A DNA stretch of 64,000 bases, taken from the NCBI GenBank assembly GCA_965227295.1, contig OZ245742.1:3040001-3104000 (forward strand), given 5' to 3'. The translations under genes were made by a program, and so were the position numbers. Origin of the DNA: Leptonemataceae bacterium. Its GTDB lineage: Bacteria; Spirochaetota; Leptospiria; Leptospirales; Leptonemataceae. Below the pieces are notes generated by a model. The model was given only the letters and a program-made list of their open reading frames with translations. It ran no database searches and was not told the origin of the DNA. Below are positions 1 through 64,000 of the stretch, one piece after another (within the stretch, counting starts at the first letter, position 1; each line of letters starts with the position of its first letter).

Positions 1-519
1 CCTTTCGACCGAAAGTAAATGCGTAAAGCCGACCCCGGTAATCCACAGGAAGATAAGGTCATTTCCCCGGACTTCGCCAGGAACTGGCAAGTTTATGGAA
101 TCGTCCATATACAATTTAGAAAGCCGATGGATGTCGCTTTCGGTGGCCTTCAGGGTCCATAGTTGACGAGTTGCCCGGTGAAGAAAAATTTTGTTCTGTT
201 CAAACCATTTTAGTATTCCCGGATGACGTTTGGAGACTCTCGATATTATTTCGAGTAGCTCATGGCGATCGATTGGTCCAGACTGAAACTGATTCTTGAG
301 CTCCTGCCAGATACCTGTGATGTTGACAGGCTTACTCAGCCGATACTCCGTGGCTGATTCAGATATTGGAAAGATTGCAACCCCTGTAATCCCTTGAGTC
401 CGCCGATAGAAGAAAACAACGTCCCCGTCCTCGATTCCCTCCGGATAAATCCATTCGGGCCCGCCGTCGAAACGTTTCGCGCCGCCCGACACGGCCATCC
501 AGAACTTCGGCTCACGCAT
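1..519 (-). CDS. Partial protein (runs off the window edge) with two EVE/PUA-like segments
   Basis: Hand translation from ATG 519 (MREPKFWMAVSGG...IEDGDVVFFYRRTQGITGVA...VRGNDLIFLWITGVGFTHLLSVER) stays open to base 1. Absent from the ORF track because it has no stop in the window. AT-richer than its neighbours. Confidence 0.7.
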   Translation of the reverse strand, partial: MREPKFWMAVSGGAKRFDGGPEWIYPEGIEDGDVVFFYRRTQGITGVAIFPISESATEYRLSKPVNITGIWQELKNQFQSGPIDRHELLEIISRVSKRHPGILKWFEQNKIFLHRATRQLWTLKATESDIHRLSKLYMDDSINLPVPGEVRGNDLIFLWITGVGFTHLLSVER

Positions 520-574
520 AACTGCACATGATTCACAGTTACGCCGTGAGGACGCCACTGATTTTCAAACGAAC

Positions 575-710
575 GCCGAGGGGGTGACGGAGGACCGAAA
601 GCGGCCGGGCAGGGCTGGCCGGAGGCTGGCCCGGTCGCGCGGAGCGCGAGCCCGGACGTGGTCGCGAAGCGATTCGGGCCGGAGTCAGGGGGAGCAAAGC
701 TCCCCCTCCC
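575..710. repeat. GC-rich palindromic intergenic element (REP-like)
   Basis: Nested short palindromes ending in the 9-bp stem AGGGGGAGC-AAA-GCTCCCCCT (687-707). Confidence 0.45.
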
Positions 711-864
711 ATCACCGGAAGGTTTCCAGAAAACACCGGCGAATCCAATGAGACAAAACCGTTCGAGGCGGATATCATCGCAGTAGACGCGCCGTGGCGC
801 CCAGGATCATGATGGACAAAACCATCGATGTTCTGTAGTCTCTCAGCAGGAGGACTTTGTATCC

Positions 865-1104
865 ATGAAATCCACCACGACAAACATCTTACGAAAACTC
901 AGCATAACATTCATCGCCGGAGCGTTTCTGTTCAGCTCCGTAACGGCCTGTAGCTATTTCCAGGACGACAGCGACGACGACAACTCCGGCCTCTTACTTC
1001 TGGGCGGTGCCGCCGCCCTTCTGGGCGTACTGTCGAATACTACGGCGACGGCCAATCAATCCGGCATGGTCATCGACGTACCGAAAGGCGTGGCGGCCGA
1101 CTGA
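865..1104 (+). CDS. Small lipoprotein
   Basis: AGGAGG upstream; basic N-terminus, hydrophobic stretch and lipobox-like SVTAC. Confidence 0.75.
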   Translation: MKSTTTNILRKLSITFIAGAFLFSSVTACSYFQDDSDDDNSGLLLLGGAAALLGVLSNTTATANQSGMVIDVPKGVAAD

Positions 1105-1128: not shown

Positions 1129-2196
1129 ATGAAACGATTCCAAACAAATCGCGGCCGCATGCTCGCCGCTTTTGTCATGGCCGTCGCGTTCTTCGGCGTA
1201 AGCCTGAGCACCGGTACGAAGCGTGTGGCGACTCATCAGGGCCCCATCGAAACACTGCACGTGGACTTCGGCTTCAACGAATCCCTGCACGCCGCCGAGA
1301 ATGCCTGGGGTTTCGTGCGTCAGTCGGCCACCTGGGCGCGGAGCAACTCGTTGTTCATTGACGGCATTCTGGCCGGCCTCATTCGTTCCGGCCTGCTCAG
1401 TTCCAGCGGCACGTCCACGTTTGCGGGGCAGACCCTGTCCGGTCTGTCCGGAACCTGGACCCTGCGATTGACCGTGGGCGCGAACGAATCCGTCACCTCG
1501 TCGGCATATACCGGCTCGAAAACCTTCGCGAACAAGTTCGAGATCTGGCGCGACAGCGATAACGCCAAGGCCGTAGAGTTGTTCTTCAACGCCGCCGGCG
1601 ACGTCTCCGGCGACGGCGCGCTCATCTTCTATCAACTGAACGTACTGCAACCCGGCACCTGGACCGGCGATAACGTCATCGTCGAGTCGTACGTCTTCGG
1701 TAACACGTCCGAACGCAAACAGACGTACTCCTGGTCCGGCGGCAAGTTCACCAGCGACGGCATCACCACGCGCGGTCGCGTGATTCTGGAAGAGATGGAC
1801 GGCGGCACGCTCCTCTGTTTCAAGAGTGTCGTCGCGTTGAACACGAATATCTGCACCGGGGCGAGCGGCACGGAGTACTACTCCCTGGCGTATCCGGTGA
1901 ACGTCGCAGCGCCCAACGAAACCACGGCGAAGTTCGGCCTGGCCGACGGCTCCGTCGATAACAGCGGCACCATCTGCGGTGCGAACAACTCACTGAACTA
2001 CGGCCTCTTTCTGAACGGCGGATTCGTTTCCGACGGTACGGCTTCGTCCGCGGTACCTTCGAACTATCCGCCCAGCAGCCGCACCGACACGCTCTTTGCC
2101 GAGATCAACACGTCCGGCCAGGATGCCTGGGACGATACAACCCAGGCGACCATCGACGGCCTGAACATTCAATTTAAGTCGACGGCGGCGCCGTAA
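1129..2196 (+). CDS. Secreted hypothetical protein, Ser/Thr/Gly-rich
   Basis: 355-aa ORF with RBS (CAGGAG), signal peptide and GC3-rich codon usage; followed by a terminator. Confidence 0.8.
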   Translation: MKRFQTNRGRMLAAFVMAVAFFGVSLSTGTKRVATHQGPIETLHVDFGFNESLHAAENAWGFVRQSATWARSNSLFIDGILAGLIRSGLLSSSGTSTFAGQTLSGLSGTWTLRLTVGANESVTSSAYTGSKTFANKFEIWRDSDNAKAVELFFNAAGDVSGDGALIFYQLNVLQPGTWTGDNVIVESYVFGNTSERKQTYSWSGGKFTSDGITTRGRVILEEMDGGTLLCFKSVVALNTNICTGASGTEYYSLAYPVNVAAPNETTAKFGLADGSVDNSGTICGANNSLNYGLFLNGGFVSDGTASSAVPSNYPPSSRTDTLFAEINTSGQDAWDDTTQATIDGLNIQFKSTAAP

Positions 2197-2217
2197 GTTT
2201 CTGTACGCGTATGTTAA

Positions 2218-3202: not shown

Positions 3203-4012
3203 ATGATGGAACTATTCGAATACGGCTTTATGCAGCAGGCCCTCGTCGCCGCGCTGCTCGTGAGTATCGCCACCGGGGTGATCGGCGTTTTCGTCGTGGT
3301 CAACCGCATGGTCTTCGTGAGCGGCGGCGTCGCCCACGCGGCGTACGGCGGCGTGGGTCTCGCCACGTTCCTGGGTTTTTCCCCGGTGCTGGGGGCCTTC
3401 GCCTTCACGGGCGCGGCGGCGATATTGATGGGCCTGGTCCAGCGCCGCGCCGGTGAACGCTCCGACACGATCATCGGCGTGCTCTGGGCCCTGGGCATGG
3501 CCGTGGGTGTCATCTTCACGGAACTCACGCCGGGTTACCGGGGCGACCTCATGAGTTATCTGTTCGGCAGCATCCTCATGGTCAGCGTACAGGATCTCTG
3601 GTTGATGCTTCTGTTCGATGCGGTGATCATCGTCACCGCGACGTTGTTTTATCGTGAATTCGTGGCCATCTCCTTCGACGAGACCTTCGCCGCGACACGC
3701 AACGTTCCGGTAACCGCGTTCTACCTGTTGTTATTGCTGCTCATCGCCTGCGCCGTCGTTCTGCTCATGCGCGCGACCGGCCTCATCCTGGTGATCGCGC
3801 TGCTTACGATTCCCGTCTCCATCGCCTCCTGGCTGACGCGCGACCTCGGTCGCCTCATCGTCTACTCGACTTTGTTCAGCGCGCTCTTCTGTTACGCCGG
3901 TCTCGGGCTTTCTATGTTGTGGAACTTTAGCTCGGGCGCGACGATCATACTAACCGCCGGTGTAGTGTACTTAGTCGGCCAGGGTGTTAGACTGGTAAAG
4001 GGGCGGGATTGA
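3203..4012 (+). CDS. znuB: Metal ABC transporter permease
   Basis: FMQQALVAALL, GVAHAAYGG and YLFGSIL motifs; multiple TM segments; adjacent to the ATPase. Confidence 0.88.
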   Translation: MMELFEYGFMQQALVAALLVSIATGVIGVFVVVNRMVFVSGGVAHAAYGGVGLATFLGFSPVLGAFAFTGAAAILMGLVQRRAGERSDTIIGVLWALGMAVGVIFTELTPGYRGDLMSYLFGSILMVSVQDLWLMLLFDAVIIVTATLFYREFVAISFDETFAATRNVPVTAFYLLLLLLIACAVVLLMRATGLILVIALLTIPVSIASWLTRDLGRLIVYSTLFSALFCYAGLGLSMLWNFSSGATIILTAGVVYLVGQGVRLVKGRD

Positions 4013-4169: not shown

Positions 4170-4946
4170 TTACAGCCGTCGATATTCCGCCGGGTCGGCT
4201 TTGAGGATGTACCAGCCGTCGCTGTACTCCACTTCGCCGGTGATCTCCACCGGCAGCGCCACGAGTCGTAACACACGATCATTGACGGTTTGCCCGGCCT
4301 CGTCCGTTAACAGAAAGTGCCGCGCCGTTTCGCCGTCCCGCACCACGAAGACCGGCGGAATGCCGCCGCTGATGCAGCGAATCGCGCAGCCGCGGTGACT
4401 CTTCCACTCGCCCGGATTCATGGCGCCCAGGTAACACTTGCTGTCCACGATCTCGCCCTGCAGCGTATACGTACCCAGGCTGCGCCGCGCAACGCCCGTA
4501 AGATTCGCGGCGGGCAGCGCGGCGTTCTCGCCTTCCGCGAGTTGCACGGTGCCCGGACGAACGGCGATCATCGTGCGGTTCTCGCGATACAACAACGCCC
4601 CTTCCAGGCTGACGCGGCGCCCGGCGAAATCCTGGACGTAGTCCGCGCCGCCGAACTTGAACGGGTCTACCAGTAAGTACGAAGAAACATAACTTAAGCC
4701 GGCACTCTTCCCGGGGCGACGCACCCGCAAATGCGGGTACGGCTCCATGCCGACGATGCCCTCGAAGCGGCGCCAGTTTTCAAACTCGTAGACCGAGGGG
4801 CCGTAGGCGTTCTGGGTGAAAGCGAGCAGGCCGCCCGTGATCAAGAGCAGCACTGCGGCGGCGGCCACCGTACGTTTCGTAAAAAGCGCGATGCCGGCGG
4901 GGGCCCGGTCTTCGAAGCCCACGTAAAATTCATCCTGTGCGTTCAT
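4170..4946 (-). CDS. Membrane-anchored hypothetical protein with a Cys/His motif
   Basis: Start MNAQDEFYVG overlaps the upstream stop (ATGA); one TM; motif DSKCYLG...HRGCAIRC. Confidence 0.75.
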   Translation of the reverse strand: MNAQDEFYVGFEDRAPAGIALFTKRTVAAAAVLLLITGGLLAFTQNAYGPSVYEFENWRRFEGIVGMEPYPHLRVRRPGKSAGLSYVSSYLLVDPFKFGGADYVQDFAGRRVSLEGALLYRENRTMIAVRPGTVQLAEGENAALPAANLTGVARRSLGTYTLQGEIVDSKCYLGAMNPGEWKSHRGCAIRCISGGIPPVFVVRDGETARHFLLTDEAGQTVNDRVLRLVALPVEITGEVEYSDGWYILKADPAEYRRL

Positions 4947-6031: not shown

Positions 6032-6573
6032 AGTTCCTCCGGCTTCGGCGTCGGTGCATCGTCACGCACTTCCATGGTTAACTTTGACAGATCGTAACTT
6101 ACGATGATCCGGCGATGGGCCAGGCTGTAAAAGTACAGGCCGCCGCGGCTTGCGGACGGCAGGTCGAAGCTGTGCTCCCGGAGTGGCAGCGGGCCGAGGA
6201 GCAGGGCGCGATCGGGGATGCCCGCGCTACTGACTTCGCCGCCGGCATAGTAGACCAGGACATCGGGCAGCATCAGATCATGCTGCGGTTGCAGGGTGAG
6301 TCCGAATCCATCCGCGCTGCGATAGAGACGCGCTTCATAGTAGAATTTGCCGGCTGCCGGTCCGGTGGCGAGAAACCCGGCCGCGGGGCGCACGGCGAAG
6401 GCGATGAGCGGTCCGGGCGTATCGTCCACGGGCCCGGTACCCGGCAGCCGTTCGGCCCGCGCCGCTTCCGGCGCTTCGAGTTTCGCCGACATGGCGGCCG
6501 CAAACAGCGGGACCAGCACGAGCGTGAGAACGATCCACATCCAGCGGTGGCGGCGACGGAGCGGGGCGATCAT
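6028..6573 (-). CDS. Hypothetical membrane-anchored protein
   Basis: MIAPLRRRHRWMW followed by a TM segment; 4-bp overlaps with both neighbours. Confidence 0.7.
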   Translation of the reverse strand: MIAPLRRRHRWMWIVLTLVLVPLFAAAMSAKLEAPEAARAERLPGTGPVDDTPGPLIAFAVRPAAGFLATGPAAGKFYYEARLYRSADGFGLTLQPQHDLMLPDVLVYYAGGEVSSAGIPDRALLLGPLPLREHSFDLPSASRGGLYFYSLAHRRIIVSYDLSKLTMEVRDDAPTPKPEEL

Positions 6574-6910: not shown

Positions 6911-8956
6911 TTACGCAGAAAAATCGTCCAGCTCCCGGCGATTCGTGCGACGCAATTCGCGCAGATCGAAGCGGGCCGGGGCCTGGGCTGCCATGAGGTC
7001 CCGCTCGAGCCCGGTGATTTCTCCCGCGATGCGCGCCGCAAGGTACTCGGCGCCGAGGTGAGCGTACAGCAAACCGCGGGAACCCAGGGCTGTTAGTGTG
7101 TAGACGCCGGGGACGTAGATCTCCGGGCGCTGATCCTCGCGCGGTAACTCGATCGCGGCCGGGGCGCGGCCGGACTTAAGTTGTTCCAGGTAGAAGTTAC
7201 GAAGTTCATTGCGGTAATGCACCGGACCGATCAGCGGCAGACGATCGCGGCTGGTCGTGCGAAACTCTGCCCGGGCCGGCAGCTTTTCCGGCGCATTCGC
7301 AAGGCCGGCGAACACGGGACTGCGCGCGGTCAGTACGTCAAGCAGGCGCCGGTTTTGTTCGGGGATGACGTCGGGGTCATGGTTCCACTCCTCGAACGTT
7401 GCGCCGATGTGATGGTACAATTGATCGTCCGTGCCGCGGACCGGCGGGCTCGCGTAACCATCGTAGCAGAGAATACGCCGTAATGATTCGGTCGCGGGAT
7501 TCGCCGGGGCGGCAAGGGTCTGGCCGCGCACGGTTTTCAGCGGGTACTCCGGCACACCGTCCATGCTACTCAGTAAATCCAGACGCGAGGCTCCGTCGGT
7601 GATGATGACGGCCTCCGCGCGGGCGATCGTCTTACCGCCGGCATCGAGGACTTCCCAATCCTTCCCATTCCGGCGCAGGCGGGAGGCGTGAACCTGCGTG
7701 TGCAGCCGGATACCGTTTTGTTCGAGATGAGCGCGGCAGAGTTGCGGCGGCGCGGCGCACGGAGCGGTCGGGAAAAAGAGCCCGCCGTGATTGAGTTCTA
7801 TTCCGGCCAGGGACGAGGCCTCATCCGCCTCGACGTAGCGCGCAAATTCTTCCGGCAATGCCAGGGCCGCCAGGGATCGACGATAGCGTTCGACCAGGGC
7901 CGGGCTGTGCGCTAATAACAGAGCGCCGCACGTTAAGAAAAAAGGCGGATGATTCAAGTCCGCGAAACTTTGCAACAGGCGCTGGAAAAAACCGGAGGCG
8001 GCCAGAGCATAGCGCGTCGCGGCCGTGGGTTGCGCGCTCACGGCGGGTACGGCGATGCCGATGGCGTTGCCCGAGGCCCGTCGGCCCGGTCCGGCTTCGC
8101 GCTCCAACAGACTAACTTTCACTCCGCGCCGGCTCAGCGCCGCCGCCGCGGCCGTGCCGGCCAGACCCGCGCCGATGATCACGACGTTCTCTGCCGAAGG
8201 AACCCCGGCGTTGCCGCGGACCTGCGCCCTCCGGCCGATGAAGCGCCCGCGAAGCATGTCCCGCTTGCGTGCGAAGCCGGGAATCTTTTCGACCGTAAAG
8301 CCGGAATCGGCCAGGGCGCGCCGGGCCATGCCGGCACTCGTATAAGTGGCGAAGCTGGCATCGTCCGCGGAAAGACGGGCCAGTTCTTGAAAGAGATCGA
8401 TCATCCACATGTCCGGATTCTTTGCCGGGGCGAAACCATCCAGGAACCAGGCGTCCACATTCCAGACGTGCCCCGCTTCGAGGGCGGCGTAACACTCCAG
8501 CGCCTCACCGTACATGAGAAACAAAGTGGCGCGATCCTTGAACTGCAAGACGTGAATGCCCGGGTGCATGGGCGGATAACATTCGAGGAGTTCCTCCGCC
8601 TCGCGCCGCAGCTCCGGATACACGGCCAGGGCCCTGCGCAGATCTTCCGCGCGGAGCGGATGCTTCTCGCAGCTAATATACAGAAAACGTAAGTTAGAGG
8701 AAGCCCGCTCGCGAAACAGGCGCAGGCTTTCGCAGAAATTCAGGCCGGTGCCGAAGCCGGTTTCGCCGATGGTGAAGAGACCGTGTTCGCGTGCCGTGAA
8801 TCGTTCGGCGATACGATTGTGTTCGAGGAAGACATGCCGGCTTTCTTCCAGGCCGCCGGTTTCGTGGGAGTAGTAGACGTCATCGTATGTGAGTGAAATC
8901 GGCGTGCGGCCGTCGCGAAACTCCACCCGGGCGGGCTCGATGGGGCCGGTGATCAT
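6911..8956 (-). CDS. mnmC: Bifunctional tRNA mnm5s2U34 methyltransferase / FAD-dependent oxidoreductase
   Basis: YDDVYYS, ETGFGTGLNF, WFLDGFAPAKNPDMW, then the GAGLAG FAD motif and LGSRGL. Confidence 0.95.
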   Translation of the reverse strand: MITGPIEPARVEFRDGRTPISLTYDDVYYSHETGGLEESRHVFLEHNRIAERFTAREHGLFTIGETGFGTGLNFCESLRLFRERASSNLRFLYISCEKHPLRAEDLRRALAVYPELRREAEELLECYPPMHPGIHVLQFKDRATLFLMYGEALECYAALEAGHVWNVDAWFLDGFAPAKNPDMWMIDLFQELARLSADDASFATYTSAGMARRALADSGFTVEKIPGFARKRDMLRGRFIGRRAQVRGNAGVPSAENVVIIGAGLAGTAAAAALSRRGVKVSLLEREAGPGRRASGNAIGIAVPAVSAQPTAATRYALAASGFFQRLLQSFADLNHPPFFLTCGALLLAHSPALVERYRRSLAALALPEEFARYVEADEASSLAGIELNHGGLFFPTAPCAAPPQLCRAHLEQNGIRLHTQVHASRLRRNGKDWEVLDAGGKTIARAEAVIITDGASRLDLLSSMDGVPEYPLKTVRGQTLAAPANPATESLRRILCYDGYASPPVRGTDDQLYHHIGATFEEWNHDPDVIPEQNRRLLDVLTARSPVFAGLANAPEKLPARAEFRTTSRDRLPLIGPVHYRNELRNFYLEQLKSGRAPAAIELPREDQRPEIYVPGVYTLTALGSRGLLYAHLGAEYLAARIAGEITGLERDLMAAQAPARFDLRELRRTNRRELDDFSA

Positions 8957-15308: not shown

Positions 15309-15339
15309 GGGTGGATTGCAAATTGACTCCGAGGACCGA

Positions 15340-20007: not shown

Positions 20008-20040
20008 GATGCTTTTGCTGGATGTTAACAGGAGTTCTGT

Positions 20041-21182: not shown

Positions 21183-21199
21183 TCTTACCTGAATTAAAC

Positions 21200-26470: not shown

Positions 26471-26484
26471 ATTCTACACAGGGA

Positions 26485-33313: not shown

Positions 33314-34729
<1,416 letters not shown>

Positions 34730-34766
34730 CTGCGCCCCGCAGAACGTTAGTAACGGAGAGTAATAC

Positions 34767-44403: not shown

Positions 44404-44406
44404 ATA

Positions 44407-45069
44407 CTAAGTCTCTGAATCGGTTAACTTAAACAAAAGTGAGATTACCACCGTTTCGGTACTCTCCCCCGGCGTGAAGCGGTGTGCCCGGACGCCGTCC
44501 AGGGCGGCCTGATCGAGAATGCCGTAGCCGGAACTGCCGATCACCTCGGCCCCGAGCACGTCGCCGTCCGGACCGACCCGGGCCCGAATGCGCACTCGTC
44601 CCTGCCAGCCCATCTTGCGCGCCATGCGCGGGTAAGTGATGCTGTTCCAGATGGACGTGGTGTGTTGCTGGAGGACGTCGGAGTTGAACCGGCTGACCTC
44701 TTTGACGTTTTTGCCCCCGGCGGGCGGCTGTCTGCCGGCGTCGTCCGGTTTCTGTTCGAGCGGCTTTTGTCGTTTGAGGCTTACGTCAAACGAGCGGCTC
44801 GTTGCGGCCACGGCGGAAAGCTGAAGCTCCCGGCGACGGTCGGAATCCAGGAAACCGCCGAGCACGAGGGGCAACACGATGAACAGGCCGTGGGCCGCCA
44901 CCGAGACGATGATCGCCCGGGAGAACAGGGACCGGCTCAGCGGTTCGTAAGCGGACAGGTCCAGGCTGCCGTAGCCGGATGCGGGACTGTTCGAAGGGGA
45001 CTGCACGACCGCGAACACTCTTTCGCGAGACTTCCAGGCGTCAAATGTAATTTGAGATTGAGTCTCCAT
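44407..45069 (-). CDS. tonB: Energy transducer TonB
   Basis: TM with SxxxH, YPRMARKMGWQGRV, SSGYGILDQAA; start uncertain. Confidence 0.88.
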   Translation of the reverse strand: METQSQITFDAWKSRERVFAVVQSPSNSPASGYGSLDLSAYEPLSRSLFSRAIIVSVAAHGLFIVLPLVLGGFLDSDRRRELQLSAVAATSRSFDVSLKRQKPLEQKPDDAGRQPPAGGKNVKEVSRFNSDVLQQHTTSIWNSITYPRMARKMGWQGRVRIRARVGPDGDVLGAEVIGSSGYGILDQAALDGVRAHRFTPGESTETVVISLLFKLTDSET

Positions 45070-45120: not shown

Positions 45121-45201
45121 AAAGGATGGACAGCCACGTGCCGTCTGGAATCAGTGCCCACGAAACGCGGGACGGTGCCCGCGCAACGCAACAGAGGCAA
45201 G

Positions 45202-49019: not shown

Positions 49020-49020
49020 C

Positions 49021-50493
49021 GTGACCACGGCATCGAATCAAGAACTGCGCGAAATCGGCGAGCGCATTCGGGATCTCTTAGACGCGCTGGCGACGCAACG
49101 CGAAAGCGAGGACCGTCGCAGTCTCGCAAGCACCCCGGAAGAAACGCGAGAATTTTTGGCGGGCCTGGGGGATTGGTTCCCCGAGGAGCCGCTAACTTTC
49201 AATGAGTTAAAGTCTGAGATGATCGAAACGGCCCGGCGGTGCGTGGACGTGCGTCATCCGTTTACCGCGGCGCATTTGCACTGCCCGCCGCTGGCGGACG
49301 CCGTCGCGGCCGACGCCCTGGTCTCCGCGCTGAATCCTTCGATGGATTCCTGGGACCAGTCCGGTGCGGCCACCGTCGTGGAGAGTGAGCTGATTCGCCG
49401 GCTCGGCGAAGAATGTTTTGCCGCGCATACGACTGACGGCGTCTTCAGCAGCGGCGGTACGCAATCGAATCTCATGGGCCTGCTGCTCGCGCGGGAATGG
49501 GCCGTAAAAAAATGGACGCGTAGTTCGGTCTTCCAGGACGGCCTGCCCGAGGATCACCGGCGCTATCGCATTCTCTGTTCGGAAAACGCGCACTTCAGCG
49601 CGCTCAAAGCCGCCGCATTGCTCGGCCTCGGCGCGCGCTCCCTGGTGAAGGTAGGCGTCGACGAGGCCGGCCGCCTTGCGCCGGACGATCTTGCACGGGC
49701 GCATGCGGAACTACTAACTCACGGTGAACGCCCCTTTGTAGTTTTCGCCACGGCCGGCAGCACGGACCACGGCGCCGTCGACGATCTGAACGCCGTGGCG
49801 GACTTCTGCGATGCAAACGATCTGTGGATGCACGTGGACGCCGCGTACGGCGGCGCGCTCCTGTTCAGCCGTCAGCGCGATCGTTTGCGCGGGATCGAAC
49901 GCGCTCGCTCGGTGACCATGGACTTTCACAAGCTGTTCTTTCAGCCCATCGCGTGCAGCGCCTTTCTCGTCCGCCGGGCGGAGGATCTCAGCGCGATCAC
50001 CTACAACGCCGACTACCTCAATCGCGAGGACGACGTCTTCCCGAACCTGGTCGACAAATCCCTCGCGACCACCCGCCGCTTCGACGCCTTCAAGCTCTTC
50101 GTTTCCCTGCGCGGCCTCGGCCGCCGGAAATTCGCGGAGTACATCGACACGCTCCTGGAACTCACTCGATCCGCCGCGACGTTGCTGGCCGGACGCGAGG
50201 ACTTCGAACTGCTCGCGGAACCGCAGCTTACGACGGTGCTCTTTCGGTTGATCGACCCGCACGGCCAGTGGAGCGCGGAGGAAACCGACGCACGCAACAC
50301 ATCCGTGCGGGAGCAGTTGATCCGGAGCGGTGCGGCCGTGGTCGGCGAGAGCCGGGTGAACGGCCGGACGGCTCTTAAGTTTACGTTCATGAATCCTTAC
50401 TGCGAGGTCCAGGACGTAGTGGAACTCATTCAATGGATCGCGCGTGCGAGCGCGCACGATGCCGAGCACATGCCGGTGAGTAACGGAGGCTAA
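49021..50493 (+). CDS. PLP-dependent diaminobutyrate decarboxylase (RhbB/Ddc-like)
   Basis: AHLHCP, SWDQS, GGTQSNL, HVDAAYGG, DFHK. Confidence 0.92.
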   Translation: MTTASNQELREIGERIRDLLDALATQRESEDRRSLASTPEETREFLAGLGDWFPEEPLTFNELKSEMIETARRCVDVRHPFTAAHLHCPPLADAVAADALVSALNPSMDSWDQSGAATVVESELIRRLGEECFAAHTTDGVFSSGGTQSNLMGLLLAREWAVKKWTRSSVFQDGLPEDHRRYRILCSENAHFSALKAAALLGLGARSLVKVGVDEAGRLAPDDLARAHAELLTHGERPFVVFATAGSTDHGAVDDLNAVADFCDANDLWMHVDAAYGGALLFSRQRDRLRGIERARSVTMDFHKLFFQPIACSAFLVRRAEDLSAITYNADYLNREDDVFPNLVDKSLATTRRFDAFKLFVSLRGLGRRKFAEYIDTLLELTRSAATLLAGREDFELLAEPQLTTVLFRLIDPHGQWSAEETDARNTSVREQLIRSGAAVVGESRVNGRTALKFTFMNPYCEVQDVVELIQWIARASAHDAEHMPVSNGG

Positions 50494-50494
50494 T

Positions 50495-52303
50495 ATGCAG
50501 AAAACACAGGTTAAAGTTGATTTTAGTTATCAGGCGGTCTTGAACTGCTTCTTGCGCGAGACGGCGGACTGGAGCCGGCTCCCCCTCGAACACGAAGCCT
50601 GCCCGGAGGAATTTCGGGAGGCCGGGCTGGACTCTTTCGCGTTGATTCCGCTGACCGGAGAACGAGAAATCGCCGTGGGCATTCGGTACCACTCGTTGAC
50701 TCTGCGCCATCAACTACAGTTCCCGGTACTCACGCGTGCGCGCGGCGAGGCCTGGCATAGAATGGACCTGGCGGATTTTGTAGAGCAAAGCCTGCGCAGC
50801 ACGGCGGAGAAATTGAACGTGAAACGCCGGCCGGAGCCGGAGTTGCTGATCCGCAAAATTCAGAACAGCGCCGCGAACATCGAGCGATTCATTGAAGCGC
50901 GCTCGGCGGATATAACGGCGCTCAACAGCGCGGCGCCGCAATCGTTCATCGAGTCCGAGCAGAGTTTGCTCATCGGTCACCAGACGCATCCCGTCGGCAA
51001 AACGCGTGAGGGTTTCGACGATGCGGAGATGGAACTCTATTCGCCGGAGTTGCAGGGCCGCTTCGCGCTGCATTTTTTTCGAGTGCATCCATCCGTGCTG
51101 CACAGCGACTCCGCCGTTCCCGGCCGGAGCACGGATCAAATCTTACGCGACATGATCGCGCAGGATCCCGCGGTGAGCGCGGAGTTCCGTGAACGTTGCG
51201 ATGAAAAGCGCGATTGGGCGCTGCTTCCCGTGCATCCCTGGCAGGCGCGGTACGTGCGGGAGCACGTGCCGGAAGTGCGCGAGTTGTTTGCGCAAGGTTT
51301 GCTGGAGGACCTCGGCCCGGCGGGTTCGGAGTTCACGCCGACGACTTCGATCCGTACGGTCTATCGCGAAGGTTTTGAGTTCATGTTTAAGTTTTCGCTG
51401 AACGTGAAGATCACCAACAGCGTGCGTGTCAGCCTCGCGCGGGAACTGGATCGCTCCGTGGAGATGGCGCGACTCATGTCGACCGACTACGGTCGGACGA
51501 TCCAGGCGGACGTGCCCGAATTCGTGTTCATCCAGGATCCGGCGTACGTCGCGGTGAAATGGAACGGCAAAGTGATCGAACCGCTGTCGTGTACGCTGCG
51601 CGACGCCGCAACGGTGAACGGTGTCCAGGACATCAGCGCGGTGGCCGCCCTGGTCCAGGATCACCCGCGCGGCGGCGTGCCGCGTTTGGGCAGCATCATC
51701 GAAGGCATTGCCGCGCGCGAAAGCCGCGATGTCGAAGCCGTCAGCCTCGATTGGTATCGCGCGTACTTAAGCGTGAGCATCTACAATCTGCTCAAACTGT
51801 TCTTCAAGTGGGGCCTGTGTTTCGAAGCGCACGGTCAAAATTCGTTGCTGGAACTCAAGAACGGTTATCCGGTGCGGTACTTTTACCGCGACAGCCAGGG
51901 ATACTTTCATCGCGCCGCCGCTCATGAGGACTTCACGAAGGTCATTCCGCGATTGGGCGAAGTCACCGAGTCGATCTTTCCCGAGGACCTCGCCAACGAA
52001 CGTCTGGTCTATTATCTCATCGTGAACCAGGTTTTTTCGATCATCAACGCGCTGGGAACCCAGGGCCTGGCCGACGAACACGAACTCATGCGTGAGTTCG
52101 ATGTCATGCTGGATCGTGTCGCCGAAGACGGCGCGCGTTATCCGACGACGATGATCGATCAGCTCAAGAACCTGGAACGTCTCCCGTGCAAAGGCAATCT
52201 GCTCACGCAGTTGTTCGACATGGACGAACTGGTGGGGGACATCGCGACGCAGTCGGTGTACGTTACGATTCCGAACATCGTAAGGCAAGGGGGAGTCGGA
52301 TGA
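50495..52303 (+). CDS. IucA/IucC family NIS siderophore synthetase (RhbC-like)
   Basis: EQSLLIGHQTHP, LPVHPWQ, TTSIRT, KITNSVR, EAHGQN, YRDSQG. Confidence 0.93.
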   Translation: MQKTQVKVDFSYQAVLNCFLRETADWSRLPLEHEACPEEFREAGLDSFALIPLTGEREIAVGIRYHSLTLRHQLQFPVLTRARGEAWHRMDLADFVEQSLRSTAEKLNVKRRPEPELLIRKIQNSAANIERFIEARSADITALNSAAPQSFIESEQSLLIGHQTHPVGKTREGFDDAEMELYSPELQGRFALHFFRVHPSVLHSDSAVPGRSTDQILRDMIAQDPAVSAEFRERCDEKRDWALLPVHPWQARYVREHVPEVRELFAQGLLEDLGPAGSEFTPTTSIRTVYREGFEFMFKFSLNVKITNSVRVSLARELDRSVEMARLMSTDYGRTIQADVPEFVFIQDPAYVAVKWNGKVIEPLSCTLRDAATVNGVQDISAVAALVQDHPRGGVPRLGSIIEGIAARESRDVEAVSLDWYRAYLSVSIYNLLKLFFKWGLCFEAHGQNSLLELKNGYPVRYFYRDSQGYFHRAAAHEDFTKVIPRLGEVTESIFPEDLANERLVYYLIVNQVFSIINALGTQGLADEHELMREFDVMLDRVAEDGARYPTTMIDQLKNLERLPCKGNLLTQLFDMDELVGDIATQSVYVTIPNIVRQGGVG

Positions 52304-52872
52304 TCGCGAATGCGACGCGCGTGGAGTTGCGCCCGGTGAATGTGGAGCGCGATGCGGAGCAGGTCTACGCCTGGTCCCGGCGTCCGCACGTGCGCGAATT
52401 CTGGCAGGACCTGGGCGACAACCGGGTCGACGTAGGCGAGTATCTGCTCGCTAAGATAATCTTAGAGCATCTTAATCCTTACATCATCGTCATCGACGGC
52501 ACGGACGCCGGTTATGCGGAACTCTACGATTACAACCGCGATCCGGTGGCGCAGATCTTTCCCGGCGAGGACGGGGACCGGGGCTGGCACATCTTTCTTG
52601 GCGAAGAACGTTTTCTGGGTACCGGTCACGCCATGCACGCGGGGCACGCGATTCTCGCGACGTTGTTCGAACATGAGAATTGCCGGCGGGTGCTCTGCGA
52701 ACCGGACGAACGCAACGCACGCATGTTGCGTTTCGTGCAGAAGCTCGGCCATCGCCCCATCGGCACGGCCGTCCTGCCGGACAAAATCGCGACGATCCTG
52801 GCGTGCCGCCGGGAGGACTTTGCGGACCTCGGCCCGCTTCCGAACGTTTCGAAATCAGAGAGGACTTTATGA
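52300..52872 (+). CDS. Siderophore N-acyltransferase (RhbD/IucB-like GNAT)
   Basis: PHVREFW, DRGWHIFLGE, EPDERN, LPDK; ATGA overlap. Confidence 0.88.
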   Translation: MIANATRVELRPVNVERDAEQVYAWSRRPHVREFWQDLGDNRVDVGEYLLAKIILEHLNPYIIVIDGTDAGYAELYDYNRDPVAQIFPGEDGDRGWHIFLGEERFLGTGHAMHAGHAILATLFEHENCRRVLCEPDERNARMLRFVQKLGHRPIGTAVLPDKIATILACRREDFADLGPLPNVSKSERTL

Positions 52873-54236
52873 AACTATGTAAGCACGACCTGGCCGGTGT
52901 CGGCATCGGCCCCTTCAATCTCAGCCTGGCGGCGTTGCTCGAGCCCCTGCGAGCGAACGGCGAAAACGTGCGGCCTGTATTTTTTGAAAGCAAACCGCAA
53001 TTCGACTGGCACAGCGGGATGATCCTGCCCGGTACCACGCTGCAGGTTCCGTTCCTGGCAGACCTGGTGAGCATGGCGGATCCGACGAGTCGCTTCTCGT
53101 TTTTGAACTACCTGCACGAAATGCGGCGCCTGTATCGGTTCTATTTTTACGAAAACTTCAAGATCCCGCGCAAAGAGTACAATCAGTACTGTCGTTGGGT
53201 CGCGGAGCAACTGGACAGCCTGCAGTTCGGCGCGCGTGTAATCGACGTGCGGCCGTTGAACGACGGGGGCTTTGAGTTGTACTATCGTCCCGCGGGGGGC
53301 GGTGCAACTCAGTCTGTAACTTCTGCAAATGTTGTGTTAGGCTACGGCACCGTCCCGAACGTACCGGAATGCGCGCGGCCGTTTTTGGGCGACGGCGTGT
53401 ATCACACCGCACAGTTTCGCAACAATCGAGAACGTTTCGCGAACGCCGGACGCATTGCCGTTTTCGGCAGCGGGCAGAGCGCCGGAGAGTGTGTGCTCAG
53501 TTTGCTGCAGGATCAGGCGGAGCGGCGCTACTCCCTGGATTGGTTCACCCGCGGCCCCGGCTTTTTGCCCATGGAGTATTCGAAGCTCGGTCTCGAACAT
53601 TTTTCACCGGAGTACATCGACTACTTTCACGGACTGCCCGCGGCGGCGCGCGATCGCATTCGTGCCGGCCAGAACTTGTACTACAAAGGCATGTCCGATG
53701 ATACCATCGCCGCGATCTACGACACGCTGTACGAACTGCAGCTCGAAGCCGACGCCGTACCGGTGACCCTGGCCGGCAACACGGAGTTGCTCGACATCCA
53801 ACGTGACGGCCGGGGCTTCGCTTTGCATCTGCGACACCGCGAACTGGATCGTCGTTTTGTCCGCAACGTCGACGCGGTCCTTCTGGGTACCGGTTACGCC
53901 TATCGTCTGCCGGAGTTTCTCGACAACCTGTTGCCGATTCTCGAACGCGACGAACAGGGGCGCCTGGCAATCGATCGCGACTATCGCGCGCGACGAAACG
54001 ACGGCCGGCCCGGAGACGTCTTCGTTCAAAACGGGGAGATCCACAGTCACGGCATCGGCGCGCCGGACCTGGGCCTCGGTGCGTATCGCAGCGCGAGCAT
54101 CGTGAATACGCTGCTCGGTCGCGCCGCGTATCGCCTGGATCGGAAGAACGTTTTTCAGACCTTCGGTGTGCCCGATGTCGACGTCGATGTCGTGGCAACG
54201 AGCGACGATCTCGCCGGTGTCCTGGGAGGAGCATGA
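52869..54236 (+). CDS. N-hydroxylating flavin monooxygenase (RhbE/IucD-like)
   Basis: GIGPFNLSLA, WHSGM, LQVPFLADLV, GSGQSA, LGTGY, APDLGLG. Confidence 0.93.
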   Translation: MKLCKHDLAGVGIGPFNLSLAALLEPLRANGENVRPVFFESKPQFDWHSGMILPGTTLQVPFLADLVSMADPTSRFSFLNYLHEMRRLYRFYFYENFKIPRKEYNQYCRWVAEQLDSLQFGARVIDVRPLNDGGFELYYRPAGGGATQSVTSANVVLGYGTVPNVPECARPFLGDGVYHTAQFRNNRERFANAGRIAVFGSGQSAGECVLSLLQDQAERRYSLDWFTRGPGFLPMEYSKLGLEHFSPEYIDYFHGLPAAARDRIRAGQNLYYKGMSDDTIAAIYDTLYELQLEADAVPVTLAGNTELLDIQRDGRGFALHLRHRELDRRFVRNVDAVLLGTGYAYRLPEFLDNLLPILERDEQGRLAIDRDYRARRNDGRPGDVFVQNGEIHSHGIGAPDLGLGAYRSASIVNTLLGRAAYRLDRKNVFQTFGVPDVDVDVVATSDDLAGVLGGA

Positions 54237-56089: not shown

Positions 56090-56721
56090 CTGCAACGACG
56101 GAAGTATTTATGCCGCGCACCGAGTGTCTCTTCGAACACTGTGCCTACTCCGAACACTATCCCATGGCGAACAAGACCATCTGGATGCGTCCGGTGGATG
56201 TGCACTTTGATCTGAGCGTCATTCATCGCTGGATGAACCTGCCGCACGTCGAGAAGTTCTGGGAGAAGGCATGGCCGATCGAAAAAATCCGCGAATATCT
56301 CGTGGAATGCAAAGAACGAACCGGCTTCGATCCGCACATTGTGTACATGGACGAGGAACCCTTCGGTTACATCGAGATCTACGATCCGGCTCACGACCGC
56401 ATGAAGGAGTATTATGACGTGGAGCCCCACGATCAGGGCCTGCATATCTTAATCGGCGAAGAGAAGTACTTAAAACGATTTATCATTCGCCTGAGCCTTT
56501 CGGTGATTCGTTTTACGTTTCTGCACCGGCCGGGCACGCGGCGCATCATCGGTGAACCGGACGAACGCAATCGCCAGGTGCTCGGTCTCATGCGTTACGT
56601 CGGCTTTCGCCCCGTACGCAAGCTCGAACTTCCGGAGAAGGTCGCGGAGTTTATGATCCTCCGTCGCGAGGAATACGAACAGGCCCACGGCAAAATCCAG
56701 GCGAGCGCTCATGCAGGCTGA
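56086..56721 (+). CDS. Second siderophore N-acyltransferase (GNAT)
   Basis: HRWMNLPHVEKFW, DQGLHILIGE, GEPDERN, LPEK. Confidence 0.88.
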   Translation: MTATTEVFMPRTECLFEHCAYSEHYPMANKTIWMRPVDVHFDLSVIHRWMNLPHVEKFWEKAWPIEKIREYLVECKERTGFDPHIVYMDEEPFGYIEIYDPAHDRMKEYYDVEPHDQGLHILIGEEKYLKRFIIRLSLSVIRFTFLHRPGTRRIIGEPDERNRQVLGLMRYVGFRPVRKLELPEKVAEFMILRREEYEQAHGKIQASAHAG

Positions 56722-57529
56722 ACCGCTCGTACGCATACGCAATCTGCGCAAGAGCTACGAGGTCGGCCGGCCGGTGTTGCGTGATGTTTCCCTGGATCTC
56801 ACGGCCGGTCGCATTACGGCGTTGCTCGCGCGAAACGGCGCGGGCAAGTCCACGGCCATCGCGCTCCTGGCGGGCAAGCTCAAACCCGACGGCGGCAGCA
56901 TCGCCTGGGGCGGCGCGTCGGCCATTCCCCCGGCGGACGTCGGAGTGGCCCCCCAGGACACGGGTGTGTATCCCGATCTTACCACGGAAGAAAACGTAAG
57001 ATTCATGGGCCGTTGCTACGGACTGGGAGGGCGCGATCTCGCGGGCCGCGTCGCGGAAACCGTGGAACTCTTCGGCCTGGAACGATTGGCCCGGCAGCGC
57101 GCGCGCACGCTTTCCGGAGGACAGAAGCGTCGTTTGCATACGGCCATGGCCGTGGTTCATCGGCCGCGACTGATCCTGCTCGACGAACCCACGGTGGGCT
57201 CCGACCCGGGCGCCCGTAACTATATATTAAATGCGGTTAAGGAACTCGCCCGCCGCGGTTCGGCGATCCTGTATACGAGCCACTACTTTCCGGAAATAGA
57301 GGCCCTGAATGCCGACGTGGCGATCCTGCACCAGGGCATCATCAAAACCTGTGCTCCGCTTCAGGAATTGATTGCGCGGTACGGCGTCGGCGTGCGGCGC
57401 GTCGTTCGGCCCGAGGCGGACCTGGAGTCGGTTTTTCTACGAATGACGGACGAAGCGCAGGATGATGAGCCGACCGCGCGGCATCAGGAGGAACGTTATG
57501 AAACACAGCCTGAATATACTCGCGCATGA
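56711..57529 (+). CDS. ABC exporter ATP-binding protein
   Basis: RNGAGKST, LSGGQKRR, LLDEPTVG. Confidence 0.9.
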   Translation: MQAEPLVRIRNLRKSYEVGRPVLRDVSLDLTAGRITALLARNGAGKSTAIALLAGKLKPDGGSIAWGGASAIPPADVGVAPQDTGVYPDLTTEENVRFMGRCYGLGGRDLAGRVAETVELFGLERLARQRARTLSGGQKRRLHTAMAVVHRPRLILLDEPTVGSDPGARNYILNAVKELARRGSAILYTSHYFPEIEALNADVAILHQGIIKTCAPLQELIARYGVGVRRVVRPEADLESVFLRMTDEAQDDEPTARHQEERYETQPEYTRA

Positions 57530-58265
57530 ACTGCGCATCGCCCGGGGCGACCCGGCGTTGTTCGCGATCCTGTTCGTGATGCCGTTTACGGTGTTGTATC
57601 TCGTGGCGCCGGCCATGCGTCCGGCCATGATCATGCAGGGTTACGCGGACGCGAGCGGGGCCGAGCAGGCCATGCCCGGCATGGCGGTGCTCTTCGGAAA
57701 CTTCGGCATGGCCTTCCTGGCTTTCGCCGTCTTTCGCGAGCACACCTGGAACACCTGGGACCGTTTGATGTACGCGCCGGTGCCCCGCGCGTCGATCTTC
57801 GCCGGCAAGGCCCTGTTGCCCTTCGGCTTAGTAGTGATTCAACAGATCTTAATGCTCGGCGCGGCGCATTTAATTTTCGACGTGCAGCTGAGCGGAAGCT
57901 TCGCCGCGTATTGCCTGATCGCCGGGGCCTTTGCGTTGTTCGTCGTGTCGGCGGGTTTTCTCTGCACGGCGGTGTTCTCCTCGATGCAACAGGTGAACGC
58001 CGTTATCAACATCGGCTCGTTGCTGCTGGCGGGTCTCGGCGGGGCCTTCGCTCCCATCGAACACCTGCCGCCGTGGATGCAGAGCGCGGCCGTGTTTTCT
58101 CCGAACTACTGGGCCATCGCTTCGTTTAAGGCGATCATCCTGGACGGCGCGGGTCTCCGGCAGGTGTTGCCGGCGGCGGGCATTCTCACGGGCATCGCCG
58201 TACTGTGTTTCGCGGGGGCGATCCTGCGCTTCAGGGATGAACATCGTAAAATGTCCTGGGCCTAG
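57498..58265 (+). CDS. ABC-2 type exporter permease
   Basis: About six TM segments, GGAFAP, LPPWMQ, PNYWA; AGGAGG upstream of ATG 57498. Confidence 0.87.
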   Translation: MKHSLNILAHELRIARGDPALFAILFVMPFTVLYLVAPAMRPAMIMQGYADASGAEQAMPGMAVLFGNFGMAFLAFAVFREHTWNTWDRLMYAPVPRASIFAGKALLPFGLVVIQQILMLGAAHLIFDVQLSGSFAAYCLIAGAFALFVVSAGFLCTAVFSSMQQVNAVINIGSLLLAGLGGAFAPIEHLPPWMQSAAVFSPNYWAIASFKAIILDGAGLRQVLPAAGILTGIAVLCFAGAILRFRDEHRKMSWA

Positions 58266-61641: not shown

Positions 61642-61950
61642 CGATGCGGATCGCCGTCAAGTCCAACGCGCCGCGTTCTGCATTGCCTGTCGCTTCAACG
61701 GACGCGCGCGACACCGTGCACTATCGCTGTCCTCGCTGCGGCGGTCGCCTCTAACGATCACAAGGAATTCGCCCGGCTGAAGTTGTATGATCGGGCCCTG
61801 CAGCGGGAATCCGCGGGCGGGCTAAGTCAATCTGAAGATAAGTTAACCGAAGACCACGTTCCGGAACTGCTGCGCCTGGTTCGCAAGAATCACGCCGGTT
61901 GATCGGCACTTTGTGCTTGCACGCTGCGGCTCCGCGGTCCAAACATAACC

Positions 61951-62232
61951 ATGGCCGAAAACAATTCCCTCGAAGTCCTGCTGGTTCTGGATCTCAAGAA
62001 CGCGACGGAGGAACAGAAGAGTTCTTTTTTCGAAAATCTGAAGCAGAACGATTGGGAGCCCGTCCCCGAAGTGAACGGCGCCTGGTCGGCCTCGTTCGAA
62101 GAAATGAATCGCGAAGACGTCGTCGACGAAGTGGACGGCGACCTGGATGAAGCCGCGGAGGCGTCCGGGGTTGGAAGTTACGCGGCGGCATTGCAGTTCA
62201 GTGAAAACCAGGCCTGGGTCCTCGAGGGATAA
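61951..62232 (+). CDS. Small acidic hypothetical protein
   Basis: 93-aa ORF filling the gap before phoX. Confidence 0.65.
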   Translation: MAENNSLEVLLVLDLKNATEEQKSSFFENLKQNDWEPVPEVNGAWSASFEEMNREDVVDEVDGDLDEAAEASGVGSYAAALQFSENQAWVLEG

Positions 62233-62350
62233 ACGCGTTCGTATAACGCCGCCGTTACGATCCTGCAACGGCTCGACTACAAAAGCGTTGAATCGACGCA
62301 GGCGCGCGAAAAAAGGTTGAGCACCACGGCGGCGACGTTTCGATTCCTGC

Positions 62351-64000
62351 ATGAAGGATCGTCTCTGGTCTCGCAAAGATTTTCTGAAGTTCATGGGCCG
62401 CGGCGCCGCGGCCGTTCCCGCCGCAACCATGTTGGGCGCTTTCATGAACCGTTGCCGGCCCGGTAACGCACCCGCGGGCATCGCTCCCTCGGACAGGGAC
62501 GCTCTGCTTCTCGCGCACGGTCTGAACTACGACATCCTCGTGCGTCACGGCGACATCATTCAAAACGAAGCCGGGCTGCGTTTCGGAATGAACAACGATT
62601 ACCTGGCGTTGCTCCCCGACCGTGACGGCCGCGCCGATCGACTGACGCTCTGGGCGAACCACGAAACACCGGCGGGCATGTTCTACGAACCGACCGGGCG
62701 TTTCATCTGGCGTCCGAAAAACGCCGCCGAGTTCGCGGCGCAGCGCACTGCCGTCGGCGGGAGCTGTCTGACGATCCGCCGGGATACGAAGCGCAAGTGG
62801 CACGTGGAAACGGCGGACCAACGGAACTTTCGCATCGATGCGACGACGATGATTCCGTTTAGCGTGCCCATCGACGGGGCCGAAGTCGCCGAGGGTACGT
62901 TCGGCAATTGCGCGGGGGGCTTAACTCCCTGGGGTACGATCTTAACGTGCGAGGAGAATCACACCTACTACTACGGCGACTCCATGTGGCAGGGCGGGCG
63001 GAACGTGGACCTGTTCGATGCGATCCGAACCGGCGGCTACGCCTGGAATCGTTTTCGTCCGGGAAATCGGCCGAATCACTACGGCTGGGTCGTCGAGGTG
63101 GACCCGCGCACGGGCCGCGCACAGAAACACGTTTCCCTGGGGCGTTGTTTTCACGAATGCGCCACCGTGGCGCAGGCCCGGGACTACGATCAGAGCGGTC
63201 TCGTAGCCGTTTACACCGGCGACGATCGTTACGGCGGCTGCATCTATAAGTTTCTCTCAACGAAAGCTAAGAGCGTGGAGGCGGGGCGGCTCTTCGTCGC
63301 CGTAATGGACGAGTCTCCCCGGGCGGAGGTTGCCGCCGAGGGCAAGAAAATTCGCGGGCGCTGGGTGGAACTGAACGTTCGCGATCCGCGGCTCGCGCGC
63401 TTTCGTTCGCAGACGAACGTCATGATCCACGCCCGCCAGGCCGCGATGGCCGTGGGCGGCACGGAACAGGATCGCCCCGAGGACATCGAAGTCGATCCGC
63501 ATAGCGGAGACGTTTATGTTACGCTCACCTATGATAACAAAAAAGAAATACCGAATTTGTTCGGTTCCATTCTGCGCATCGAAGAAGACGGCGGCGATCC
63601 CTTCGCCGCGGAATTCACAGCGTCCGTCTTCAAAAGCGGCGGGACCGAGAACGGCTTCGCCTGCCCGGACAACCTGGTCTTCGATCCGCGCGGCAATCTG
63701 TGGATGGTCAGCGACATCTCCGAAAAGAGCATGAACAAAGGCGAGTACGCCCCGTTCAAGAACAACGGTTTGTTTTTTATTCCCATGCGCGGAGCCGACG
63801 CCGGCCGGGTGATCCAGGTCGCCAGTGCGCCGGTGGACGCCGAGTTTACAGGGCCGTGTTTTGCGCCGGACGGCCGCACGTTGTTTTTGTCCGTGCAGCA
63901 TCCCGGCCTGCGTTCGACGACGCTCTCCGACATGACGTCTCGCTGGCCCGACGGCGATCGGCCGAAGAGCGCCGTCGTTGCGATTCGCGGTGAGCTGCTG
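62351..64000 (+). CDS. phoX: PhoX family alkaline phosphatase (partial, stop beyond the window)
   Basis: Tat-like SRKDFLK, LWANHE, NCAGGLTPWGTILTCEEN, DRPED, ACPDN, EFTGP, SVQHPG. Frame is consistent at both ends; absent from the ORF track. Confidence 0.9.
   Translation, partial: MKDRLWSRKDFLKFMGRGAAAVPAATMLGAFMNRCRPGNAPAGIAPSDRDALLLAHGLNYDILVRHGDIIQNEAGLRFGMNNDYLALLPDRDGRADRLTLWANHETPAGMFYEPTGRFIWRPKNAAEFAAQRTAVGGSCLTIRRDTKRKWHVETADQRNFRIDATTMIPFSVPIDGAEVAEGTFGNCAGGLTPWGTILTCEENHTYYYGDSMWQGGRNVDLFDAIRTGGYAWNRFRPGNRPNHYGWVVEVDPRTGRAQKHVSLGRCFHECATVAQARDYDQSGLVAVYTGDDRYGGCIYKFLSTKAKSVEAGRLFVAVMDESPRAEVAAEGKKIRGRWVELNVRDPRLARFRSQTNVMIHARQAAMAVGGTEQDRPEDIEVDPHSGDVYVTLTYDNKKEIPNLFGSILRIEEDGGDPFAAEFTASVFKSGGTENGFACPDNLVFDPRGNLWMVSDISEKSMNKGEYAPFKNNGLFFIPMRGADAGRVIQVASAPVDAEFTGPCFAPDGRTLFLSVQHPGLRSTTLSDMTSRWPDGDRPKSAVVAIRGELL

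Follow-up and report, generated by a model that had tools for sequence, protein, structure and literature searches.

Short words that recur throughout bacterial genomes, such as Chi, KOPS, the uptake sequences and HIP1, have each revealed a machine that reads the whole chromosome. HIP1 is a lineage-bound palindrome of cyanobacteria, a contiguous GC-rich octamer found about once per kb in coding and non-coding DNA; its mechanism is debated and a DNA-modifying or DNA-binding protein is suspected. The DNA uptake sequence (DUS) of the Neisseriaceae and the uptake signal sequence (USS) of the Pasteurellaceae are contiguous, asymmetric 9-12-mers of lineages known to be competent; a high density, placement inside genes without regard to frame, many near-matches and absence from islands are typical of such words. 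The targets of Type I restriction-modification systems are bipartite, and half-size specificity subunits of these systems have palindromic targets. The dRS3 elements of Neisseria, with 6-bp ends around an 8-bp core, are intergenic and serve as integration targets. The subject of the present analysis is a spaced palindrome, TAA-N17-TTA, that is iterated through a 64,000-bp stretch of DNA from a Leptonemataceae bacterium (the window; contig OZ245742.1, 60.0% G+C, about 94% coding), where it had been pointed out in an earlier note made from the letters alone. Site counts and statistics refer to this single 64-kb window of one genome, and a site is a regular-expression match to the exact word.

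The excess of TAA-N17-TTA is real and very strong. There are 31 exact sites in the window (0.48 per kb), about 15-fold over an expectation of about two; all 28 starts given in the earlier note are exact, and three more sites lie at 3711, 24134 and 40186. The cleanest control is the spectrum of spacer lengths, in which composition, codon usage and local AT patches all stay the same. Against the 31 copies with a spacer of k=17 there are 10 at k=18 and 4 at k=16, while the other spacers from k=5 to 119 (15-19 omitted) give a mean of 1.98 copies (sd 1.52, maximum 6), with no 3-base phase class raised. The sharp peak that the note had staked its claim on is borne out by the preset comparison, in which k=14, 20 and 23 give 2, 1 and 2 copies. 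An open scan of all 64x64 trinucleotide pairs (4,096) at gaps 3-80 places TAA-17-TTA first (31 versus 2.68 expected, z 17.3), and the pairs ranked next (TAA-18-TAA, TAA-16-GTT and AAC-16-TTA) are its shadows. The excess also holds against both kinds of null that the note had named: Markov models of orders 1, 3 and 5 yield 2.71, 2.16 and 2.17 sites (maximum 6-7, 100 runs each), and synonymous-codon shuffling within genes, which leaves the seven stop-codon-borne sites in place, yields 9.31 +/- 1.62 (maximum 15, 400 runs). In a codon-aware test, 23 of the 255 places where the protein permits the word at k=17 carry it (9.0%), as compared with 20 of 3,772 (0.53%) at 18 other same-phase spacers. These writable places are themselves most numerous at k=17 (255 versus 180-237 elsewhere), suggesting that the amino-acid sequence has also yielded to the word. 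Codon usage, 3-base periodicity and local AT clustering as the cause are ruled out by the spectrum, the codon-aware test and the nulls.

The word is specific in its orientation and symmetric in its tolerance. Only the inverted form is enriched, with TTA-N17-TAA (2), TAA-N17-TAA (2) and TTA-N17-TTA (3) at background. One-mismatch copies come in mirror pairs, AAA..TTA and TAA..TTT occurring 16 and 15 times (about 4.6 expected for each) and TAG..TTA and TAA..CTA 7 and 6 times (about 1.7 each). The eight one-mismatch copies reported previously are all present, in the class TAG-N17-TTA / TAA-N17-CTA, which has 13 members. Strong and weak sites together, written WAA-N17-TTW, number 80 against 23 expected, or about one per kb. 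By itself AA-N17-TT is not enriched (174 versus 161), and TA-N19-TA shows no surplus in the window beyond the exact sites.

When the sites are compared with the 671 other TAA contexts of the window, an extended consensus emerges. At position 0, Y is favoured (p 1e-8) and A and G are disfavoured, G being found in 27% of sites versus 45% at other TAAs. Position 4 tends not to be A (p 3e-3), positions 5 and 6 tend to be T (p 2e-5 and 3e-4), and a preference for T at position 11 is mirrored by A at position 13 (p 8e-5). YTAA-N17-TTAR occurs 14 times for 0.29 expected and TAAS-N15-STTA 19 times for 0.80 expected. The extended word of about 25 bp can be written Y-TAA-S-T-T-N4-T-N-A-N4-A-A-S-TTA-R, and no conservation was found among the sites outside positions 0-24. 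The spacer has 48.8% G+C versus 59.5% in the flanks and lacks self-pairing, each position pair being complementary in just 6-13 of the 31 sites. Positions 4 and 20 do not covary either, as TAAC..GTTA and TAAG..CTTA together account for 10 sites and the non-complementary combinations for 9. A hairpin or cruciform is ruled out by the unpaired spacer and the absence of covariation. Any two spacers most often agree at 4-5 of 17 positions, two outlier pairs reaching 13 and 12; the spacers are unrelated and the sites are therefore not copies of a repeat or mobile element, an origin that was considered and dismissed on this ground. The sites at 8674-8696 and 50491-50513 agree at 13 of 17 spacer positions and in some of the left flank, the former lying in mnmC on the opposite strand and the latter spanning a stop/start junction with a ribosome-binding site. 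Measured between their centres, the half-sites are 20 bp apart at N17 and 21 bp apart at N18. Since N18 is enriched (10 versus about 2) and N16 is not (4), the optimum is near two helical turns, as had been supposed, which places both half-sites on one face of the helix.

The earlier description of a dyad-symmetric signal at the DNA level, written through genes, stands. No fewer than 24 sites lie wholly within a coding sequence (CDS), where other spacers lead one to expect 1.53, and the remaining 7 straddle a gene edge (0.54 expected), leaving none of the 31 purely intergenic. In-gene sites occupy both stop-free frames, on both strands. The half-sites draw on rare codons, overlapping 19 of the 104 in-frame TTA leucine codons and 7 of the 153 GTA codons. 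A real stop codon serves as a half-site in all seven edge sites, and eight of the 24 TAA stop codons have a TTA exactly 17 nt downstream. TAA ends 24 of the 60 called genes, which seems high for a genome of 60% G+C and may itself be tied to the word. In ccoG (site 37467) the left half consists of a conserved Asn codon and the wobble base before it, and the right half falls in a variable stretch; the double site of ccoI at 40165/40186 occupies a variable, gapped region of the protein.

The proposed frequency of one site roughly every 2 kb holds as an average only: gaps between sites range from 21 to 8,259 bp and look near-random, with a coefficient of variation (CV) of 0.82, so that regular spacing along the DNA is unsupported. 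The absence of exact copies from the retron-like island was also seen correctly, there being no exact site between 26468 and 34727, an 8.3-kb interval that spans it; by estimate, a gap of this length is not significant at the observed density. At three places (40165-40208, 10848-10891 and 57829-57872) abutting N17 sites share their middle half-site and so present three half-sites at 21-bp steps, as an exact pair at 40165/40186 and as mixed pairs at 10848/10869 and 57829/57850. Three pairs are too few to claim tandem or cooperative 21-bp arrays, and k=38-39 is at background.

For comparison with other bacteria, 80 loci from many phyla were collected from genome contigs with CcoN as the query. 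The k=17 peak is absent from all of them, including the nearest, a locus from a Leptospiraceae metagenome-assembled genome (MAG) with 67% CcoN protein identity and 37% G+C (L001), which has 9 copies of TAA-N17-TTA versus 8.2 expected. Four comparison loci of about 60% G+C have 0-1 sites each. The AT-rich loci show the usual 3-base periodicity only, with a pooled count of 393 versus 355 ± 16 for the same phase. With the refined word the window alone stands out (z 20.5), the next best locus reaching 4.4 on 3 sites. Two loci have somewhat more copies of the simple word than their same-phase spacers, one from a Bdellovibrionota MAG (L005, 31 versus 19.3±3.6) and one from a Bdellovibrionaceae MAG (L031, 19 versus 11±3); this weak excess is gone with the refined word and is therefore probably due to chance. 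As far as these data reach, that is, across the 80 compared loci, the word appears to be lineage-specific.

The inverted half-sites, the mirrored tolerance of mismatches, the non-covarying spacer, the symmetric preferences over 25 bp and the independence of frame and strand point to a symmetric reader of duplex DNA, and recognition by some symmetric protein is considered probable. An RNA-level reader with two identical surfaces is disfavoured, because direct rather than inverted repeats would then be favoured. The imposition of rare codons, the location of sites where proteins tolerate change and the completion of the dyad behind stop codons imply that a positive pressure must create or keep the sites. 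The reading preferred here joins these elements: the window would carry a lineage-specific word that a protein with two-fold symmetry recognises on duplex DNA and that positive pressure maintains. In this complete form it is put forward tentatively, with a chance of being right that falls a little short of even. The putative reader would be a dimer or a dimer of dimers, each subunit reading one TAA half-site base-specifically; the two half-sites, separated by about two turns, would lie on the same side of the helix. Between them the protein would bridge the AT-enriched spacer, which is otherwise sequence-free but for a weak central T-N-A. The pressure, whether selection for site density or a biased conversion drive, would make and keep sites where coding permits, and would be strong enough to force rare codons into genes and to place the second half-site behind a third of the TAA stops. 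As to function, the reader might be an abundant, sequence-specific architectural or 'self-marking' protein of the chromosome with about one strong site per 1-2 kb. A chromosome-wide address code, on which an abundant symmetric architectural protein would occupy thousands of dyad sites two turns apart, is conceivable but doubtful. If it were true, the sites would determine where rare codons are used, which amino acids are chosen and what follows stop codons, and bacterial chromatin would here be organised in a way that has not yet been described. The word shows the extent to which a DNA-level signal can override codon usage and protein sequence in a GC-rich genome.

Several considerations weigh against this symmetric, positively maintained reader. 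No DNA-binding or histone domain was found by Pfam among the open reading frames (ORFs) of the window, the 19 unassigned ones being searched at E<=0.01, and the window contains no candidate gene for the putative protein. We know of no described nucleoid protein with thousands of exact sites kept inside genes. The near-random gaps give no sign of selection for regular spacing, and as only 9% of the writable places are used, the pressure is moderate. The evidence comes from 64 kb of one genome. Furthermore, the same pattern would be expected from a symmetric methyltransferase, an uptake receptor or a repair enzyme, so that the function is not discriminated.

Two inverted 3-bp half-sites that contain an adenine and are held apart by a fixed, non-specific spacer would suit the bipartite palindromic target of a DNA methyltransferase, which can be likened to a homodimeric half-size Type I specificity subunit with one extra helical turn in the spacer. 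The excess would then have arisen through HIP1-like, methylation-linked biased repair or through selection for the epigenetic mark, and HIP1 provides a precedent, being described in the available text of PMC6604393 as a gene-borne iterated palindrome embedded in methylated sites. However, no hsdM or hsdS gene is present within the window, and no one-mismatch class is consistently depleted, as a very-short-patch drive predicts, the counts being small. The tolerance of N18 would be unusual for a rigid specificity subunit, a spacer of N17 is without precedent among the known Type I spacers of 5-9 bp, and restriction targets are usually neutral or avoided rather than 15-fold enriched, all of which makes a methyltransferase unlikely. 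Alternatively, the word may be a self-recognition sequence for DNA uptake or another self/non-self step, spread by molecular drive as DUS and USS are. The density of 0.5 exact sites per kb, or about 1 per kb with variants, agrees with this, as do the occurrence of sites within genes irrespective of frame, in variable parts of proteins and after stop codons, the enriched one-mismatch copies and the low-GC retron-like island without an exact site. Known uptake sequences, on the other hand, are contiguous and asymmetric rather than spaced dyads, competence is to our knowledge not known in this lineage, the window holds no competence genes and the absence from the island is not significant; an uptake sequence is thus judged improbable. 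A similarly low probability is assigned to a functionless by-product of site-specific mutation or repair, for example by a symmetric nicking or transposase-like enzyme. The unsaturated, near-random placement of the sites and the restriction of the word to one lineage are what such a process might leave behind, but no known process writes two trinucleotides 17 bp apart with a free spacer, each site is costly because 4 of its 6 bases stand on non-synonymous codon positions, and symmetric preferences over 25 bp resemble a recognition surface.

A bacterial histone was among the candidates of the earlier note, and here its proposal is disfavoured. If the word positioned a histone or some other wrapping protein, this would account for the A/T-rich patches at positions 1-6, 11-13 and 18-23, which follow one another at about one helical turn in an AT-enriched 23 bp, and 23 bp is the scale of the footprint of a histone-fold dimer. 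The host is also Leptospira-related, to judge from its DUF1574 and CcoN proteins, and the literature available in part reports histones among Leptospira-related spirochaetes. The Leptospira histone HLp, however, is reported in the accessible text of PMC12701072 to bind independently of sequence through backbone contacts, with only a mild preference for GC, yet the word demands exact trinucleotides in one orientation. Neither TA-N19-TA beyond the exact sites nor AA-N17-TT is in excess, the Leptospiraceae locus has no peak, and a longer periodic array was not seen, k=38 and k=39 being at background. A histone code is accordingly regarded as very improbable. The weak periodic dinucleotides of a nucleosome positioning signal were considered separately and do not describe the word, which requires exact trinucleotides in a set orientation. 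It is hardly credible that the excess is due to chance, or to artefacts arising from composition, codon usage, repeats or assembly: TAA and TTA are somewhat commoner in the window than in other loci of about 60% GC, but all nulls fail widely, the spacers are unrelated and the 59 tested ORFs look intact. Had the word been planted at random, about one in three of the 24 in-gene sites would contain an in-frame stop.

The genes of the window, among them those that carry the sites (Table 1), are ordinary and intact according to Pfam. They include mnmC-like and MoxR-like genes, ccoNOQP-GHI, TonB/ExbBD with a receptor, an IucA/IucC siderophore cluster, ABC transporters, PhoX and a reverse transcriptase in a low-GC stretch; all 59 ORFs that were tested appear intact, their domain matches being full-length. 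By its DUF1574 match and its best CcoN match, the host seems to be a GC-rich relative of the Leptospiraceae. The Rfam scan of the window gave 0 matches. The DUF1574 gene (23563-24669) and the next called ORF (24557-25723) overlap by about 110 nt, and the true start of the latter is probably downstream of its first TTG. The low-GC stretch at 28001-30000 has 47.5% G+C versus 60% elsewhere. On the minus strand at 28230-30215, an ORF with an RVT_1 domain (28791-29804) adjoins an ORF for a trypsin-like peptidase (28233-28721) and a small unassigned ORF (29865-30215), an arrangement that looks like a retron-type defence island, in which no msr/msd was matched by Rfam at the gathering threshold. The interval 47625-57529, with 41710-47607, appears to hold a complete cluster for a siderophore made independently of nonribosomal peptide synthetases (NIS), beside TonB/ExbBD and a TonB-dependent receptor. 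It encodes an aminotransferase, a pyridoxal-phosphate (PLP) decarboxylase, two IucA/IucC synthetases, two GNAT acyltransferases, an N-monooxygenase and an ABC exporter. The NIS cluster holds five exact sites and therefore does not look recently acquired.

Table 1. Location of the exact sites of TAA-N17-TTA in the window; gene strands are given in brackets.
Position	Strand	Context
519..541	.	TTA is the stop of minus-strand ORF 539-883; within open ORF 1-558, no Pfam match
2194..2216	.	TAA is the stop codon of ORF 1129-2196 (+)
3711..3733	.	in ABC-3 permease gene 3203-4012 (+); absent from the earlier list
3951..3973	.	in ABC-3 permease gene 3203-4012 (+)
4674..4696	.	in ORF 4170-5135 (-), no family
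6079..6101	.	in ORF 6028-6606 (-), no family
7177..7199	.	in mnmC-like gene 6911-8956 (-)
7913..7935	.	in mnmC-like gene 6911-8956 (-)
8674..8696	.	in mnmC-like gene 6911-8956 (-); spacer 13/17 identical to site 50491
14313..14335	.	in ORF 14214-15383 (-), no family
16714..16736	.	in MoxR-like AAA gene 15484-17079 (-)
20005..20027	.	TAA is the stop codon of ORF 19060-20007 (+)
21180..21202	.	TAA and TTA are the stop codons of convergent ORFs 20658-21182 (+) and 21200-21973 (-)
24134..24156	.	in DUF1574 gene 23563-24669 (+); absent from the earlier list
25759..25781	.	in TerC gene 25736-26470 (+), 23 nt past start
26468..26490	.	TAA is the TerC stop codon; TTA overlaps the start of ORF 26485-27258
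34727..34749	.	TAA is the ccoN stop codon; TTA in the ccoN-ccoO spacer
37467..37489	.	in ccoG
40165..40187	.	in ccoI; first of two sites with a common TTAA; variable, gap-rich part of the protein
40186..40208	.	in ccoI; second of the tandem pair; absent from the earlier list
44425..44447	.	in tonB-like gene 44407-45069 (-); overlaps an N18 site starting at 44408
46836..46858	.	in TonB-dependent receptor gene
50491..50513	.	TAA is the PLP-decarboxylase stop; TTA in the first codons of an IucA/IucC gene
52452..52474	.	in GNAT acetyltransferase gene 52186-52872
53317..53339	.	in Lys/Orn N-monooxygenase gene
56450..56472	.	in GNAT gene 56086-56721
57217..57239	.	in ABC ATPase gene 56711-57529
57850..57872	.	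in ABC-2 permease gene; preceded by a TAG-N17-TTA copy at 57829, with a common TTAA
59090..59112	.	in acyltransferase-3 gene, 11 nt past start
61823..61845	.	TTA is the stop codon of ORF 61843-62481 (-)
62922..62944	.	in phoX

In the texts accessible to a full-text literature search no description of a TAA-N17-TTA motif was found, the matches to the motif string apparently concerning promoters or integrons. The partly available literature on iterated palindromes contributed HIP1 alone as relevant, and that on spaced dyads and uptake sequences footprinting only. As far as this search shows, no spaced dyad in 15-fold excess inside genes has been described. Two binding signals of other kinds were set aside. 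The sites of EbfC/YbaB are given as GTnAC in the available text of PMC2665219; GTAA-N17-TTAC occurs 0 times in the window, and G at position 0 is depleted (27% versus 45%). A sigma-70 type promoter has a 17-bp spacer between unlike -35 and -10 hexamers and lies upstream of a gene, but the word is symmetric and mostly intragenic and has no conservation outside positions 0-24 (no promoter scanner was run).

The word resembles HIP1 in its strong over-representation, which extends to the inside of genes (31 copies versus about 2 in 64 kb, 24 of them in a CDS). It differs in that HIP1 is a contiguous 8-bp palindrome, whereas here two AT trinucleotides flank a free 17-bp spacer, neither conserved nor self-complementary, in a GC-rich genome, and a reader must therefore span two helical turns. 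With DUS and USS the word has in common its density (0.48 exact copies per kb), its copies in genes in any frame, its enriched near-matches (WAA-N17-TTW, 80 versus 23) and its use of weakly constrained places such as gene ends (8 of 24 stops); it is a spaced dyad, however, and not a contiguous asymmetric sequence from a lineage known to be competent. Like the bipartite targets of Type I systems, it consists of two short, adenine-bearing, inverted half-sites at a fixed distance across a non-specific spacer. Unlike them, it has a spacer of 17 bp (18 in a minor class), about 10 bp above any known to us in a range of 5-9 bp, it is strongly over-represented instead of neutral or avoided, and the window contains no genes of such a system. 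The dRS3 elements share with it the spaced inverted repeats around a variable core, in hundreds of copies in their case, but are intergenic, while 24 of the 31 sites of the word lie in genes. Dispersed repeats in general, such as repetitive extragenic palindromes (REP), miniature inverted-repeat transposable elements (MITE) and dRS3, are rejected on the spacer identities, which peak at 4-5 of 17 with the two outlier pairs at 13 and 12, and on the same placement in coding sequence. HIP1, DUS and USS, Type I targets and dRS3 each have a defining feature by which TAA-N17-TTA stands apart from them.

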